5,451 nucleotides of DNA, taken from the IMG/VR virus record IMGVR_UViG_2728369181_000007. One strand, given 5' to 3'. The position numbers and the translations under genes are program-made. Within the stretch, counting starts at the first letter, position 1, and every line of letters begins with the position of its first letter. Origin of the DNA: a virus. Lineage: Duplodnaviria; Heunggongvirae; Uroviricota; Caudoviricetes. Below the pieces are notes generated by a model. That model was not told the DNA's origin and made no database searches. It saw only the letters and a list, made by a program, of their open reading frames with translations. Positions 1 through 5,451 of this stretch are shown in pieces.

Positions 1-420
1 ATGACGGATTATCAGCCATACAGGAAAGGAACTGTGCTTGCCCCAACTGGACCATGCAATCATCTTCATGTGATTTGTAATGATCCTGTTTATTACCCCG
101 TTAACGATTGTTATTGTGTTTTAGTTGTTAATATTTCTAGTATCAAGGATGGTGTCCCCCACGATCCGTCTTGCGTCTTGAATTCTGGTGATCATCGCTT
201 TATCAAGCATCCAAGTTATGTTGTTTACGCTGAAGCTATAATTTGGCGAGTGGATAACATGGTTAGAAAGCAGCGATCGGGTGAGATTTCTGTTCATGAT
301 GATATGCCAGAAGCTACATTCAATAGAATTCTGGACGGTTTTGATATCTCTGATGAAGTTACGCCAAAGAACCTTAAATTTAAAAATAAATATTGCGTAT
401 CATCTATTGATGATGAGTAA
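1..420 (+). CDS. hypothetical protein, 139 aa, Cys/His-rich, encoded by an AT-rich gene (cargo/moron-like)
   Basis: ATG at 1-3 (window edge, so the true start could lie upstream), TAA at 418-420. It is the only long ORF on either strand across 1-450. Composition is visibly more AT-rich than the prophage operon, with runs such as ttaaatttaaaaataaatatt near the 3' end. Six Cys and six His (e.g. CNHLHVIC, DCYC). No family recognised by eye. Confidence 0.4.
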   Translation: MTDYQPYRKGTVLAPTGPCNHLHVICNDPVYYPVNDCYCVLVVNISSIKDGVPHDPSCVLNSGDHRFIKHPSYVVYAEAIIWRVDNMVRKQRSGEISVHDDMPEATFNRILDGFDISDEVTPKNLKFKNKYCVSSIDDE

Positions 421-459
421 ACAACAGGAATTGTTTCGGTATAACTTCTGGAGTTTTCT

Positions 460-633
460 ATGGAAGATCAAAAAGCAACCAAGCCACAGGTTAAGTTCGA
501 CACAATGAAAGCATTCGTAGGTATGGGTGCTGCTGTTGAAGTTCTGATGAAGGCTGCTCCTAATGCGTTCACTCACGCTACTGTCTCTGGTAAAGAGCAG
601 CAGGGTAAGCTTCGTCGTCTCAAAGCAGCATGA
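460..633 (+). CDS. small hypothetical protein, 57 aa (MEDQKATKPQVKFDTMKAFVGMGAAVEVLMKAAPNAFTHATVSGKEQQGKLRRLKAA)
   Basis: Not in the supplied ORF track (presumably below its length cutoff); translated by hand. GGAG at 450-453 sits 6 nt upstream of ATG 460-462; stop TGA 631-633. Codon choice (ggt, gct, cgt, ctg, gtt, aaa) looks E. coli-adapted and differs from the AT-rich upstream ORF. An intrinsic terminator follows 20 nt downstream. Confidence 0.45.
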   Translation: MEDQKATKPQVKFDTMKAFVGMGAAVEVLMKAAPNAFTHATVSGKEQQGKLRRLKAA

Positions 634-652
634 TCATAGCTGGTGCTTTTTG

Positions 653-678
653 AAAACCCGCCTTCAGGCGGGTTTTTT
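653..678. terminator. Rho-independent terminator hairpin, probably bidirectional, between convergent genes
   Basis: Stem aaaacccgcc (653-662), loop ttca (663-666), stem ggcgggtttt (667-676), with the T-run extending to 678 on the plus strand and an A-run on the other side. It lies between the plus-strand stop at 633 and the minus-strand stop at 681-683. Confidence 0.6.
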
Positions 679-680
679 CT

Positions 681-962
681 TTAGTGATTTTCTTTGCCCT
701 TCTGTTTGACTGTTCTGACCTGTTCCCACTCGATACGTCCTTCTTCTCGCCTTTTGTCTATGTATTCCGCAAGATCCTGAATATTGATGCAACGTTTTGC
801 TTTTTGTGATGTGCCGATGCGATATGTTGGAACGGGCAACTTACAAGCGTTTGCTTTTGCTTCTGCCGTGGCTGGACTCATACCAAAGTACTTTTGGCTA
901 ACTGCTGAGAGTTCAATGTTTGGGGTATTGAATTCAGCCATCAGTAAAAACAAGGTGTTCAT
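681..962 (-). CDS. small excisionase-like / PrtN-like DNA-binding protein, 93 aa
   Basis: Minus-strand ORF with TAA stop at 683-681. Preferred start is ATG at 962-960, preceded by GGAG (revcomp of 968-971) 6 nt upstream; alternative in-frame starts are ATG 974 and GTG 989 (the track's 102-aa form). It is the last gene of the operon, directly after the exonuclease, which is where the excisionase gene torI lies in KpLE1. The family assignment is from memory of similar prophage proteins and is not verified. Confidence 0.5.
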   Translation of the reverse strand: MNTLFLLMAEFNTPNIELSAVSQKYFGMSPATAEAKANACKLPVPTYRIGTSQKAKRCINIQDLAEYIDKRREEGRIEWEQVRTVKQKGKENH

Positions 963-998
963 AATTTTCTCCATCAAAACCGGCTGCACCCGGGAAAA

Positions 999-1571
999 TC
1001 ATAATTCTGTGCTGGTGGCAGGAATTAATTTCTGCCAGATAGCGGAAACATATTTTGCCTGATGACGGGCATCGGCCAGGGCGTTGTGCCGTTCGCCATC
1101 GAAAGGCATGTCCATTTTGGGGTCGAATCCGATGGAACGCCCAAGCGTAACGATCGTGCGTACATCGTGGTCATTCCAGTATGCCCACGGGCAAATTTGT
1201 CCTGCTCGCTCATAAGCTCCACGTAAAATTACGTTGTCGAAGGTGGCCCCGTTACCCCAGACTTTTAAATATTTCGTATTGGCTGCATGCCGGTTAATGA
1301 AATGATTTAGTTCTGAGAGAGCATCGCTGATCGACAAAGTATCATCAATACAGATTGCAGCTCGTGCTTCAGGGCTTTGTTTCAACCACCACAGGATGGT
1401 ATCGCCGTCAGGTGTAGCTCCTTGCCCCATAGCACTTTCCAGGCTAACAACCGTATAGAATTCTTGTCCGATGTCTCCGGTTTCTGGAGTGAAGAACACC
1501 GCGCCAATGGAAACGATCGGTGCATCCTTATTTTTCCCCATCGTCTCAAGGTCGATCATTAAGTTGTTCAT
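999..1571 (-). CDS. DEDDh-type 3'-5' exonuclease (DnaQ/RNase T-like), 190 aa
   Basis: Exo I-like motif MIDLETMG (D-x-E), Exo II-like WGNGATFD, Exo III-like HNALADARHQAKY (H-x4-D). Start is ATG at 1571-1569, which overlaps the upstream gene's TGA stop (minus-strand reading gTGAtg); GTG at 1574 is an alternative. Stop TGA at 1001-999. Confidence 0.75.
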   Translation of the reverse strand: MNNLMIDLETMGKNKDAPIVSIGAVFFTPETGDIGQEFYTVVSLESAMGQGATPDGDTILWWLKQSPEARAAICIDDTLSISDALSELNHFINRHAANTKYLKVWGNGATFDNVILRGAYERAGQICPWAYWNDHDVRTIVTLGRSIGFDPKMDMPFDGERHNALADARHQAKYVSAIWQKLIPATSTEL

Positions 1572-2137
1572 CACTTCACCTCCTGCGGCGGTTCCGGTAG
1601 CGGCATCCAGTGAGTTGCTTGCTCAATACCATTACCCGGCTTAATCGTTGCATCTCCGCGCCGAAAGGTGCTTCCGGTATAGCGTGCGGAGCATATTAGC
1701 GGTTCAACCAGATCACTATCGAAATTCACCGAAATAAGTACGTTCTGATTCTTTTTCGGCATTAGCTCACTACAGCTTATCCAACCATCCGGAGTTACCG
1801 GAGAGTTGCCATTTACATCGAAGTTTGGCTCTGCGTCCTGAACCAGGAGGATGTAACCATTCTTGGCTGTATCAAGTTCTAACGCCTCGGTGACGGTGCC
1901 GAAATAGCGATTACCTAAATCAGCATCACAAGTGCTTACATCAATGGAAACTTCCATGCCTTCGATTAATTCTGGCAAGTTGTAAGTTTGGCTTACAGGC
2001 TCTGCTTCCAGCGATACCAGTGCAATTCGTGCCAGTTCTTCCGCTTCTTCTGCTGGCAGTACAACGTTGCTGCCAGGTCCGTATGTTTCGCGCCACTGCT
2101 GGATTGTCAGCAGGCGTTCTTTGGTAATAGTGGTCAT
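1571..2137 (-). CDS. DUF551 domain protein, 188 aa, prophage accessory
   Basis: The C-terminal sequence ATHWMPLPEPPQ matches what I recall as the hallmark of DUF551 proteins of enterobacterial prophages. ATG at 2137-2135 is preceded by AAGGTG about 9 nt upstream; stop TGA at 1573-1571. Confidence 0.7.
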   Translation of the reverse strand: MTTITKERLLTIQQWRETYGPGSNVVLPAEEAEELARIALVSLEAEPVSQTYNLPELIEGMEVSIDVSTCDADLGNRYFGTVTEALELDTAKNGYILLVQDAEPNFDVNGNSPVTPDGWISCSELMPKKNQNVLISVNFDSDLVEPLICSARYTGSTFRRGDATIKPGNGIEQATHWMPLPEPPQEVK

Positions 2138-2139
2138 AG

Positions 2140-2331
2140 CTATTTCACCTTAATCTCAACATTTCGCAGCTTTAGCTCTACTGGCAGGTCTGACTTTCCT
2201 GTTAATGCTAATGCGAGATTTTCTGGAGTAATGAGAGCAGTTATTGTTTTCCCCCTCGCCAGACGAATAATCATTCGTATTTCGCGATCGTCACATGCTC
2301 CCGGTCGAACAATTGATATTTGTCCGTTCAT
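2140..2331 (-). CDS. small hypothetical protein, 63 aa (MNGQISIVRPGACDDREIRMIIRLARGKTITALITPENLALALTGKSDLPVELKLRNVEIKVK)
   Basis: Internal ATG at 2331-2329 of the track ORF 2140..2412, preceded by GGAGAGTGAG, and beginning 1 nt after the upstream gene's stop. The longer 90-aa form would overlap the preceding CDS by 80 nt in another frame. Stop TAG at 2142-2140. No family recognised. Confidence 0.45.
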   Translation of the reverse strand: MNGQISIVRPGACDDREIRMIIRLARGKTITALITPENLALALTGKSDLPVELKLRNVEIKVK

Positions 2332-2332
2332 C

Positions 2333-2860
2333 TCACTCTCCTTTGATGCGAATGCCAGCGGCGCGTGGCACATTAACTTCCACGATGCGCACAGTTGGTT
2401 TGTACATCTCAATCGCAGTCAGCCAGTCAGCTCCTGTCATGCGCTTTTCCGCATCGCCATTAGTCCACTGAACCGGTACACCAATAGCCTTCATCGCGAT
2501 TTCTATTTCCCCGGCAATGGCGCTTTTTCCGCAACCAGTAAAACCAGATACAACGACAAGAACTTCGCCTTTGGCTGGTTTTATTTCCCGTGCTTCCAGT
2601 TCTGCAATACGCTTTTTTGCTGCTTCCAGTTCATCCAGTAATTCCAGCACGGTAGCCGGATTAGCCTTGGCAACAAAATCCCGGACTGGCTTACAATCAA
2701 TCTCCGCAATGGGTTGATACGATGTGTAGCCATGCTGTCTTGTATAACTACCGTGACGAATAACGAAAAAATCACCGTTTATTTTTTTAGCCTGCCACTT
2801 ATCTTCACCGGCTTTCACTGCCGCCTCACGCAGTGCCTGATAGTCAATTTTGTTTGTCAT
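2333..2860 (-). CDS. Ead/Ea22-like prophage protein with coiled-coil segment and a C-terminal Walker A-like motif, 175 aa
   Basis: The N-terminal region (DYQALREAAVKAGEDKW...) and a coiled-coil stretch (LELLDELEAAKKRIAELEARE) resemble Ea22-like proteins. GFTGCGKS fits the Walker A pattern GxxxxGK[ST]. ATG at 2860-2858 overlaps the upstream TGA as ATGA; stop TGA at 2335-2333. Confidence 0.65.
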   Translation of the reverse strand: MTNKIDYQALREAAVKAGEDKWQAKKINGDFFVIRHGSYTRQHGYTSYQPIAEIDCKPVRDFVAKANPATVLELLDELEAAKKRIAELEAREIKPAKGEVLVVVSGFTGCGKSAIAGEIEIAMKAIGVPVQWTNGDAEKRMTGADWLTAIEMYKPTVRIVEVNVPRAAGIRIKGE

Positions 2861-3735
2861 GTAACTACCTCTTCGAATTTCAACTCCAGTTGATCACCCC
2901 AGATTTCACATGACTCTGAACACGAGCCGGTATCGAATCGCCCGGCCTGCACCATCGCCTGATACAAATTCCAGTAGTCGCTGTCGGCATACATTCTGGC
3001 AATCCCTTCAAGACTCAGATGACCACGGTACATAACGTCTTTACCTGTTCTGCGATGACCGTCCCTGACGTGTTGGCCTGTAACCAGTTCATTAAAAACC
3101 CGCATCAGGCCAGGTTCGTCCTTACATGCAAGCCCCAGCTTTTGCGTTGACTTTTTGATGCAGAAAACACAGTTCCCGAGGTGCTCAGGGATAAGTAAAT
3201 CGAACGGCTGTTTACGCCACCACCGGATAACATCCGACTTATCAAAATCTGACAGTTCGGCGAGATACCGGACGCCCGGTTTCGGTTTCAGCCTGCGGGG
3301 TTCGTCTGCACGAATACCCAGCCATGTGATGTAATTCCCTCGCCCAAAATGGTCATCGCAATATTTCGTGAAAGGGGTGAGTTTTAGCCTGTCAGTACAG
3401 AATGCGCCGCCGATGTATGGCGTACCGTACTTTTTAACCATGTCCATAAACGGTTTAAGCACCGGCATTCGCGTCTGAATATCCTTTGGTTCCCATTCCG
3501 TATAACCATTTGGCTGCCCAAGCTCTGGATTTATATCGACCTGCAACACAGTTAGCGGTATGCCCCAGAACTTCACAACCTCCCGAATAAAGCGGTATGT
3601 CAGCGGATGTTCGCAACCGGTATCCATAAAGATGTAGCAGACGTTATTGCCAGCCTTTCTTTGTTCTTCCATCAGGTGAACAAGATATGCAGATGTTCTC
3701 CCGCCAGAAAAACTAACTACATGAGTTATGCACAT
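2857..3735 (-). CDS. PP-loop ATPase, phosphoadenosine phosphosulfate (PAPS) reductase family protein, 292 aa
   Basis: N-terminal PP-loop SFSGGRTS (res 8-15) followed by FMDTG (res 36-40), typical of the PAPS reductase/ATP-sulfurylase-like fold. Two Cys pairs, CVFC (res 189-192) and CSESC (res 272-276). ATG at 3735-3733 overlaps the yfdR 3' end by 10 nt; stop TGA at 2859-2857. Confidence 0.8.
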   Translation of the reverse strand: MCITHVVSFSGGRTSAYLVHLMEEQRKAGNNVCYIFMDTGCEHPLTYRFIREVVKFWGIPLTVLQVDINPELGQPNGYTEWEPKDIQTRMPVLKPFMDMVKKYGTPYIGGAFCTDRLKLTPFTKYCDDHFGRGNYITWLGIRADEPRRLKPKPGVRYLAELSDFDKSDVIRWWRKQPFDLLIPEHLGNCVFCIKKSTQKLGLACKDEPGLMRVFNELVTGQHVRDGHRRTGKDVMYRGHLSLEGIARMYADSDYWNLYQAMVQAGRFDTGSCSESCEIWGDQLELKFEEVVT

Positions 3736-4262
3736 TTGCGTAATTCCGATAACTCGTTGAAGCGTTCCATAAACATCCCGTAGGCATGGCCCGGTGCCAG
3801 TGGAATCACTTTGAACATCTCTGTTGCCGGGATACCTTCCAATACAGGCCAGAAAGAGCCATCATCAAGTCCGAGATCGCGGCGTTCGGTTGCCAGCATG
3901 ATGAGATCGGCATATTTCACTGGCGTGCTCATAACAGGAGGTAACCCGTATTTCTCACGGATTACGGCGTCTATTTTTTCTTCCATCCGTTTATAGTCAG
4001 GAAGAAGTCGTTTCAGTGGTGCGGGGATGTCCTGGCAATACGCTTCTGTTGCATCATGCATTAACGCTTCAAAAGCAAATTCCTGCGGCACCAGCTGGCT
4101 GCAAAGCACCGCATGCTGGGCGACACTGTAGAAGTGTGAAAGATGTCCTGCAAAGCGACAGATATTTGAAAGGGAAACCGCGATATCGTTAATCACGATG
4201 TCGTCTTTATTTATCTTGTCATAATAAAAATGCTTCCCGGAAAAAGTTTTAATAAATGACAT
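3726..4262 (-). CDS. yfdR: HD-domain phosphohydrolase (5'-deoxynucleotidase-like), YfdR homolog, 178 aa
   Basis: The H...HD motif (AQHAV ... LMHDATEAY) marks an HD domain. I chose the internal ATG at 4262-4260 (MSFIKTFSGK...), preceded by GGAG (revcomp of 4269-4272) 6 nt upstream, giving 178 aa, which matches my recollection of K-12 YfdR. The track's 199-aa form starting at 4325 has no comparable RBS. Stop TAA at 3728-3726. Confidence 0.85.
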   Translation of the reverse strand: MSFIKTFSGKHFYYDKINKDDIVINDIAVSLSNICRFAGHLSHFYSVAQHAVLCSQLVPQEFAFEALMHDATEAYCQDIPAPLKRLLPDYKRMEEKIDAVIREKYGLPPVMSTPVKYADLIMLATERRDLGLDDGSFWPVLEGIPATEMFKVIPLAPGHAYGMFMERFNELSELRKCA

Positions 4263-4356
4263 TTCGTTCTCCACTTTATATGCGCTGCACCGCGCTGAAT
4301 TCGGGTAAAAGGAATCCCGCACCATCCGGCGATTATTGAGTTAATTACGTTTCCAT

Positions 4357-4378
4357 AAATGCCCCCGCAGGGGCATTT
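4357..4378 (-). terminator. perfect 9-bp inverted-repeat hairpin in the yfdQ-yfdR intergenic region; possible weak terminator/attenuator or RNA processing site
   Basis: aaatgcccc (4357-4365), loop cgca, ggggcattt (4370-4378). It lies 12 nt downstream of the yfdQ stop on the minus strand. The U-tract is short (UUUAU), so if it is a terminator it is weak. The 128-nt gap is the only sizeable intergenic space in the operon. Confidence 0.3.
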
Positions 4379-4390
4379 GCAGTAATGAAA

Positions 4391-5215
4391 TCAGGCGGTG
4401 AAAGTACCAATAAAGGTTTCTACTTTGCTGTCTTTGAATTTCTCAACAAGCAGATCACGAAATTCGTTAGCCATTTCTTCCTGCACTGCTTCCAGCTGAA
4501 TAATGCGCAGAACCAGTACAGGACGATCGCCAGTGATAATGCTGAGGCGTAATTTAAATGGACGTTCTTTCAGACCTTCAAACGGAACGCATTTAAATTC
4601 AAATGCCACTGGCATAATGTCTTTGGTCTTCGCTTCGACAGACTCCATCAGGGAGCGTTTGCCGCTGAAGTCATTATCTTCAAAATCAGCGGTCTGGTTC
4701 GCTTCAATTGTGATTTTACGGATCGCCGCAGCCGCTTTGGTTGCCTGAATGGCGTCACCATTAGCATCAAAGCCCACAAGGTAGTCGGCCCAGTCTTCAA
4801 TCCATTCTGCCAGTGACTTCTGGGAGTTACGCTCGCCATTAACAGACAACAGAGCAGAGAACGGTGCTGTCTTTTTCAGTTTGAGAGTGGCGGTGTTATC
4901 TGCGTGACCTGGTTCATCAATAGTACCCAGGTTAAGCACACTGACGGCTCGCATATTATCGGCATCGATAAAGCAGCGGGTGCCTTCATCTGCAAGATCT
5001 TTAGAATAACGGGTAAAGTCATCGATGCTGGCAGTGGAAAGTGCACCACGGAAACGGAAACGATTTAAATTAAATTTTTCCAGATCATGAATGCGGAAAT
5101 TCTCAGGCAATGCCACAGCATCGGCACCAATCTTACTGATAATTTCATTAACACCCTGAGCAGAAATAAGGGCATGGATTTGATTAATTGCGGTTGAGTC
5201 TAAGTTCTGAGACAT
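4391..5215 (-). CDS. yfdQ: DUF2303-family prophage protein, YfdQ homolog, 274 aa
   Basis: ORF of 274 aa beginning [12 protein letters not shown], matching the length and, as far as I recall, the sequence of K-12 YfdQ, and lying immediately upstream of yfdR as in KpLE1. ATG at 5215-5213 with GAGG about 8 nt upstream; stop TGA at 4393-4391. Confidence 0.85.
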
Positions 5216-5280
5216 AATAAGTCCTCACTATATAAAGATATTCAGTGATGAGATAAATAATCGGTTAATTAAGAACGATA

Positions 5281-5451
5281 TTAATTACCTGCTGCGCGGA
5301 GTTTTCCGTCAGGTTCACCGGCAAGAGTCAGTAATTGTCCCTGGTCTTCCTGCAGAATAGTCAGGCGACCACCGCGATTGACATACATCGGCGTTTCGGT
5401 GGTGTCTTCTTCGGAAATTTTCCCGCGGTTAGTCGGGCGAACATATGAGAG
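5281..5451 (-). CDS. 3' end of an upstream operon gene (partial, 56 codons visible; sits where yfdP lies in KpLE1)
   Basis: Hand translation of the minus strand gives an open frame from the window edge to TAA at 5283-5281 (...LSYVRPTNRGKISEEDTTETPMYVNRGGRLTILQEDQGQLLTLAGEPDGKLRAAGN*). Same strand as the operon; absent from the track because it has no start inside the window. The identity with yfdP is positional only. Confidence 0.45.
   Translation of the reverse strand, partial: LSYVRPTNRGKISEEDTTETPMYVNRGGRLTILQEDQGQLLTLAGEPDGKLRAAGN

Follow-up and report, generated by a model that had tools for sequence, protein, structure and literature searches.

The window, by which we mean the whole 5,451-nucleotide stretch of viral DNA analysed here, begins with two plus-strand open reading frames (ORFs), and every substantial gene across 681-5451 lies on the minus strand. 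The features are listed below; those of 999-5451 are named in part after the annotation of the identical region.

Position 1: left edge of the window, an artificial cut within the prophage; the true junction lies 823 nt further left
1-420, plus strand: putative toxin of 139 aa, MazF/Kid fold predicted
447-450: mosaic breakpoint, from the start coordinates of matches to relatives with the mEp460-type cassette
460-633, plus strand: phage-conserved ORF of 57 aa (PHROG 2741, E 1e-34)
652-677, both strands: G+C-rich hairpin between the convergent genes
681-962, minus strand: PrtN-family gene, predicted rdfN-type (matches to PF11112 and PHROG 1300)
684-712: mosaic breakpoint in the last ~10 rdfN codons (matches start at 700-712; protein and DNA alignments)
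999-5451, minus strand: remainder of the early-left operon, preceding rdfN, with the following entries
999-1574, minus strand: 3'-5' exonuclease
1571-2137, minus strand: DUF551 protein
Between the DUF551 and Ead/Ea22 genes, minus strand: ORF of 63 aa
2333-2860, minus strand: Ead/Ea22
2857-3735, minus strand: PAPS-reductase-like protein
3726-4325, minus strand: YfdR
4391-5215, minus strand: YfdQ/DUF2303
Right edge of the window, minus strand: yfdP, 3' end only

The probable excision-factor gene and the adjoining hairpin

Sequence searches found the region to be frequent among E. coli prophages and lambdoid phages. Four lambdoid phages, 1720a-02 (KF030445; Stx2dact), mEp460, Lys8385Vzw and phiSTEC1575-Stx2k, carry an early-left operon like that of the window at about 97% DNA identity, with the identity starting at window position 712 in 1720a-02 (97.6% from there on) and phiSTEC1575-Stx2k, at 447 in mEp460, and at position 1 in Lys8385Vzw. 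Their Ead/Ea22 and DUF551 alleles differ from those of the window.

The minus-strand gene at 681-962 is a member of the PrtN family. Its product matched the Pfam model PF11112 (PrtN) with an E value of 4.2e-23 and 81.7 bits (cut-off, 24.2 bits), covering profile positions 1-73 of 74, and it matched PHROG 1300, annotated as 'excisionase', with an E value of 1e-39. The protein is 93 aa long as in RefSeq, the longest ORF reaching a GTG at 989 (102 aa), and thus fits the range of small single-domain RdfN-like proteins (about 76-100 aa). It is 94% identical to the homologue of phage 1720a-02 and, where aligned, 94-97% identical across mEp460, phiSTEC1575-Stx2k and 1720a-02. Among dusA-specific elements, none has xis next to int and all carry a PrtN-domain gene, which was named rdfN (Durand et al. 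2021, PMC8409611); its product is needed for Int(dusA)-mediated excision, a requirement demonstrated for IMEVchUSA3 only, and members of the family are highly divergent, with 29% identity between two of them (PMC8409611). The RdfN proteins in our census of viral contigs were only near-identical ones (98-100%), so that the census is uninformative on distant relatives. Carried on an element at the dusA 5' end and not adjacent to int, as rdfN is, the gene at 681-962 is predicted by analogy to encode an rdfN-type recombination directionality factor (excisionase), and it closes the minus-strand early-left operon.

A 47-nt spacer separates the stop codon of the PrtN-family gene from the nearest plus-strand ORF and holds the hairpin at 652-677, which consists of an 11-bp stem with six G-C pairs and is followed by a T run. 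The predicted folding energies are -19.3 kcal/mol for the plus strand, with a z-score of -3.6, and -18.1 kcal/mol for the minus strand, with a z-score of -4.4. With the T run on the plus strand, the hairpin reads as a terminator for the plus-strand cassette, and on the minus-strand side, where there are just four U residues, it is likely to serve as a weaker terminator for the early-left operon and the rdfN transcript. Relatives with other cassettes have a different hairpin, AACCCGTATATACACGGGTT, at the equivalent place (L004 1353-1385 and L006 1455-1487); the stem-loop between cassette and PrtN gene is therefore conserved in position and not in sequence.

A preliminary description of this DNA had remarked that no integrase follows the excisionase-like gene, and this was borne out: window positions 1-680 contain only the two plus-strand ORFs and the hairpin, and a tblastn search of the whole window with a dusA-type integrase returned nothing better than E 1.4. 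Its wording that there is no minus-strand ORF at all in this interval does not hold literally, as the mechanical ORF list gives three on the minus strand inside 1-680 (58, 58 and 34 aa) and one of 42 aa at 664-792 that straddles the right edge, but it does hold in substance, none of these being integrase-sized (~365 aa); they lie antisense to or overlap real genes.

Prophage junctions in dusA and the position of the integrase

The entire window was present at 100% identity in contig DAMVSG010000028.1 (assembly GCA_028020625.1; locus L009), which was reached by exact look-up of the protein of its Ead/Ea22 allele. Exact-match scans of the representative-genome collection, with a 60-mer specific to the window and with the host dusA 5' fragment, gave no hit. 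This provided the extension upstream of position 1 that the preliminary description had proposed: leftward from the window edge, the contig runs through a 573-nt Panacea gene, about 250 nt of phage DNA forming the att arm, the junction, a 5' fragment of the host dusA and zur. E. coli 95-3322 is of the same lineage and has an unoccupied site, and comparison with it placed the host/phage switch in the dusA 5' end, exactly 823 nt to the left of window position 1. There, the source contig reads ...CCCCGATGCTTGA/TAGGATGTACC (the slash marks the junction) and the empty site ...GATGCTTGA/CTGGACGG. In a longer reading, the source contig has ...ATTGCCCCGATGCTTGA/TAGGATGTACCGTTTTTG..., with the start of the host dusA and then zur to the left of the slash, and 95-3322 has ...ATTGCCCCGATGCTTGA/CTGGACGGACAG..., running on into dusA. 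The same junction distance of 823 nt was found in E. coli MSB1_9I, with which window positions 1-1073 are identical, and this strain together with K-12 and phage mEp460 gave the complete set of att sites.

attB, K-12 dusA: GGTTTAGCGTTGCACCAATGCTCGA/CTGGACGG
Cassette-side junction, MSB1_9I: K-12 attB host arm (GGTTTAGCGTTGCACCAATGCTCGA)/TAGGATGTACC
Int-side junction, MSB1_9I: GGTTTAGCATTGCTCCTATGCTCGA/CTGGACGG
attP, phage mEp460: GGTTTAGCATTGCTCCTATGCTCGA/TAGGATGTACC

In this four-way comparison, made in a K-12-type background, the core ATGCTCGA was common to attB, both prophage junctions and attP; for the dusA 5' end to the left of the window, the core is GATGCT[T/C]GA. In MSB1_9I, the core lies within a 117-nt imperfect direct repeat of 81% identity, which is there because the phage brings a dusA 5' end with it: the arm that the phage contributes to attP, ATGCCTGAAAAAACTGG...ATGCTCGA, is in frame with dusA and supplies a replacement 5' end. 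Single-site insertion in the dusA 5' end, flanked by imperfect direct repeats, is what Farrugia et al. (2015) described for an integrase family that targets one site in the 5' end of this gene, with 21-bp semi-conserved att repeats (PMC4482086). In prophage-free E. coli genomes the match of the junction probe stops at the core, and the contiguous order dusA'-Panacea-139aa-57aa-PrtN was found in 205 complete genomes. The dusA att core is shared between the four lambdoid phages and the prophage of the window, and so, probably, is the order int-attP-cassette-rdfN. Experiments on 1720a-02 have established that it inserts 100 bp into dusA, that it carries a dusA' of its own, that int is needed for attP formation and that a 7-base core is conserved between attL, attR, attB and attP (bioRxiv 10.1101/348706).

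The target site itself varies within E. coli. About a fifth of the complete genomes (1115/5426) have no yjbL-yjbM between zur and dusA, and this background has a divergent dusA 5' end with the core GATGCTTGA instead of GATGCTCGA (L097 2116-3111 vs L008 2670-3707); the same phage type integrates in both backgrounds. A non-E. coli host, considered on account of the divergent host flank, was rejected because 1115 of the 5426 complete E. coli genomes share the zur-dusA background of the source contig at 99% identity or more. In Lys8385Vzw (MT225100; L002 7145-7185), the core ATGCTCGA occurs twice in tandem at attP, unlike in mEp460 and at both prophage junctions; the duplication may have arisen artificially, when a prophage sequence that still had its two att copies was circularised.

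The integrase was located in relatives. In MSB1_9I, the far end of the prophage has a minus-strand gene for a 365-aa tyrosine integrase, 88 bp from the restored dusA start, in agreement with the suggestion of the preliminary description, which had pointed to KpLE1, that int lies elsewhere at the opposite end. The records of mEp460, Lys8385Vzw and phiSTEC1575-Stx2k have the order dinI (minus), int (minus), attP, plus-strand cassette, PrtN gene (minus) and exo (minus), the remaining operon genes coming after exo and the operon as a whole running from the repressor region; the int-attP-cassette-PrtN order recurs in one metagenomic viral contig (L053). Read around the circle, the PrtN gene is followed by int as the next gene on the minus strand, and attP and the cassette intervene. 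Because attP sits between the two genes, int and rdfN come to lie at opposite prophage ends, and the lack of int after the excisionase-like gene is the normal layout and not a loss; int directly after xis with attP outside the pair, as in the lambda/P22 type, is not what was found. The integrase gene (1,098 nt) has an equal position in mEp460, Lys8385Vzw, phiSTEC1575-Stx2k and 1720a-02; the integrase of MSB1_9I is 99% identical to that of 1720a-02, the one phage of the four for which integrase identity was compared. A tyrosine integrase beside dusA at one element end was thus seen in MSB1_9I and 1720a-02, and int-attP adjacency on three phage maps. The contig that holds the window is too short to reach the far end of its own prophage, where int would lie by extrapolation from these near-identical relatives. 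A full-length example of the layout is the prophage of strain 2014C-3599.

The prophage of MSB1_9I, the closest relative among complete genomes, is itself only a ~13-kb remnant, with an internal deletion from the Rha regulator gene to tail-tube/dinI fragments (L001 21693-22779). The PrtN gene, int and the two att sites have survived in it, and it may still be excisable. Apart from a different Ead/Ea22 allele it is 99% identical: window positions 2366-2622 encode a C-terminal half of Ead/Ea22 of another allele than in MSB1_9I (175 aa vs 218 aa), and this allele swap is a small mosaic patch in the early-left operon.

The preliminary description had also considered that the prophage might end near 634-680, at the terminator, with the convergent cassette as flanking host DNA. 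The look of the window, with convergent genes meeting at a strong hairpin, fits such a boundary, as does the fact that homology to some relatives breaks off near 447 and 700-712, but there is next to no chance that it is correct. The cassette is contained in the Lys8385Vzw record and partly in that of mEp460, the switch from host to phage DNA lies 823 nt to the left of position 1 in both the source contig and MSB1_9I, and unoccupied strains have nothing cassette-like at dusA. The breakpoints at ~447 and ~684-712 are phage-to-phage mosaic joints, since other phage cassettes replace that of the window there, and the C-terminal tail of rdfN switches together with the cassette type in both protein and DNA alignments. 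The cassette is therefore phage cargo and not host DNA. Comparing the att core with the other prophage end and with a prophage-free strain, as the preliminary description had recommended, located the att repeat elsewhere than at 634-680, and with this the boundary near the terminator, which was off by about 1.5 kb, is refuted.

Two further explanations concern the missing integrase. The idea that foreign DNA separates xis from int was right in that a variable plus-strand cassette does intervene, and one could picture an ancestral adjacent xis-int pair that was split by this cassette, the cassette alone explaining the absence of int; the cargo is variable, with at least four versions in the slot, and the toxin-antitoxin pair also occurs in unrelated mobile elements of other genera. 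We nevertheless hold such a split to be very improbable, as all versions have attP between int and the PrtN gene, so that the two would be at opposite ends even without a cassette and the position of attP is the basic reason for their separation, and as distant dusA-specific elements of Vibrio and Pseudomonas also hold rdfN away from int (PMC8409611). That the source prophage is a decayed remnant which has lost int is unlikely as well: the int end falls outside the source sequence recovered, and degraded versions do exist (the ~13-kb prophage of MSB1_9I, and that of 2014C-3599 with IS insertions), but int and the two att sites are preserved even in the 13-kb remnant, the immunity, replication and early genes look intact in the 20.5 kb of source contig that were read, and such a loss would not change the normal location of int. 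The window very probably covers the part of the early-left arm nearest to att in a lambda-like E. coli prophage, one which integrates in the dusA 5' end via a DusA-specific tyrosine integrase.

The left edge of the window recurs among related proviral contigs in IMG/VR, 14 of 80 of which end exactly at window position 1 and 22 of 80 at the Panacea start codon. Automated provirus calls thus end at the edges of genes and miss the last 823 or 254 nt up to the true att junction; cuts at position 1 split the antitoxin-toxin operon.

The cargo cassette between attP and rdfN

The gene with the Panacea/SocA-type antitoxin domain (573 nt; PF13274, E 2.2e-19) ends at window position 4, and the ATG of the 139-aa ORF overlaps its stop codon (ATGA), so that a Panacea protein adjoins a putative toxin in a two-gene operon, as in PanA-PanT systems. 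The 139-aa protein has a confident MazF/Kid-like predicted fold; Pfam has no model for it or for the 57-aa protein, and PADLOC none for any cassette protein. RefSeq places the start of the gene at 1-420 at a GTG at position 34 (128 aa). The ATG start of the 139-aa version fits better, because the family alignment shows conserved residues before the GTG (M1, P6, K9, G10 and T11), homologues are 132-150 aa long and the ATG overlaps the Panacea stop codon. Homologues of the 139-aa protein always directly follow a Panacea gene, in unrelated mobile elements of Shewanella, Proteus and Vibrio. Paired with Panacea across four genera, the family is a candidate for an uncharacterised PanT toxin family. 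The 57-aa ORF is present in all related viral contigs (80/80) and is annotated in mEp460 and Lys8385Vzw. The cassette reads as an exchangeable module of toxin-antitoxin type that comprises a Panacea antitoxin, a putative toxin with a predicted MazF fold and the 57-aa ORF.

At least four cassette versions occupy the slot between attP and rdfN, and among the four phages only Lys8385Vzw has that of the window. mEp460 carries a 177-aa protein and the 57-aa ORF, the latter being common to the window cassette and the mEp460-type cassette; phiSTEC1575 and 1720a-02 carry another Panacea protein and a 182-aa protein, a version also found in 79 complete genomes; and one further contig has a third Panacea pair in the slot. 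It is a rather doubtful idea that the slot is set aside for the exchange of toxin-antitoxin or defence cargo, where the pair of the window, then an uncharacterised one, and its 57-aa partner might stabilise the prophage against loss or protect the lysogen from other phages and where transcription of the cassette towards rdfN, meeting it at the shared hairpin, might dampen spontaneous excision.

In PanA-PanT systems (Kurata et al. 2022, PMC8832971), as in the window, a Panacea/DUF4065 gene lies directly upstream of a small putative toxin gene and overlaps it, and as in those systems the window-type pair is conserved across genera on mobile elements. The difference is that the toxin family of the window has no Pfam model and that its MazF/Kid-like fold is a prediction. 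Kurata et al. validated a PanA-PanT pair of E. coli; its identity with the phiSTEC1575-type cassette was considered and was not established, the RefSeq accessions being different, and the accessions of the window's own Panacea/toxin pair are likewise not those of the validated pair.

A model of excision and its relation to known modules

The source contig carries a gene for an S24-type repressor. We infer that SOS cleavage of this repressor would open the early-left promoter, upon which the early-left operon would be transcribed with rdfN as its last gene and the transcript would stop at the hairpin at 652-677. For int, transcription would be separate and would start at a dedicated promoter within the att arm beside dusA, and RdfN and Int would then recombine the two junctions. 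After integration, int would lie beside dusA at one prophage end, with rdfN about 1.5 kb inside the other. The distance from the core to the int ATG is roughly 190 bp. Consensus promoter scans of both att arms gave no sigma-70-like promoter ahead of int and, for the cassette, a candidate no better than chance, so that a promoter belonging to int itself is something we infer.

Five GGGA(A/G)CC repeats flank the core in attP and are spaced ~11-12 bp, or about one helical turn, apart within each arm: three GGGAACC copies lie 20-55 bp upstream of the int ATG, and two GGGA(A/G)CC copies 45-65 bp on the cassette side (L003 3965-3999 and 4180-4197; L001, that is MSB1_9I, 11221-11238 and 23959-23993). 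The window holds one chance copy of the motif. By their sequence and spacing, these repeats are candidates for arm-type binding sites of Int or for binding sites of RdfN.

Lambda and P22 have, as the phage group of the window probably does, a tyrosine integrase and a small winged-helix-type excision factor expressed from the early-left operon after induction. Lambda has xis next to int, on one transcript, with attP beyond int; the phage group of the window differs from lambda in that attP lies between int and the excision factor. It resembles IMEVchUSA3 and other dusA elements in encoding a small PrtN-domain (PF11112) protein, in the window a predicted excision factor, away from int (PMC8409611) and in its insertion in the dusA 5' end with restoration of the 5' end of the gene (PMC4482086, PMC8409611), but in contrast to those elements the rdfN-type gene of the window stands last in a lambdoid early-left operon and is presumably controlled by the repressor and the SOS response. 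KplE1 (CPS-53) and HK620 likewise have int and the excision factor at opposite ends and separately transcribed (PMC2951348), the int promoter region of KplE1 lying inside an att arm and the regulation of int and RDF being uncoupled (Panis et al. 2010, PMC2951348); KplE1 also has the yfdP-yfdQ-yfdR genes that are found near the module of the window. However, KplE1 targets the argW tRNA gene and not dusA, its TorI is not of the PrtN family and its integrase, IntS, belongs to another family. What the window has in common with the KplE1/HK620 type (IntS, TorI, argW) is thus the layout alone, and the KplE1 module is a functional analogue from a different family.

The split int/rdfN layout of dusA phages has already been published. 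What is mildly new here is the toxin family with a predicted MazF fold, which has no Pfam model and is consistently paired with Panacea. For dusA-integrating phages, the absence of int beside the excisionase-like gene does not indicate a prophage boundary or gene loss, which amounts to a correction of annotation, and the att core and junction sequences given here permit exact boundaries to be set for this phage group.
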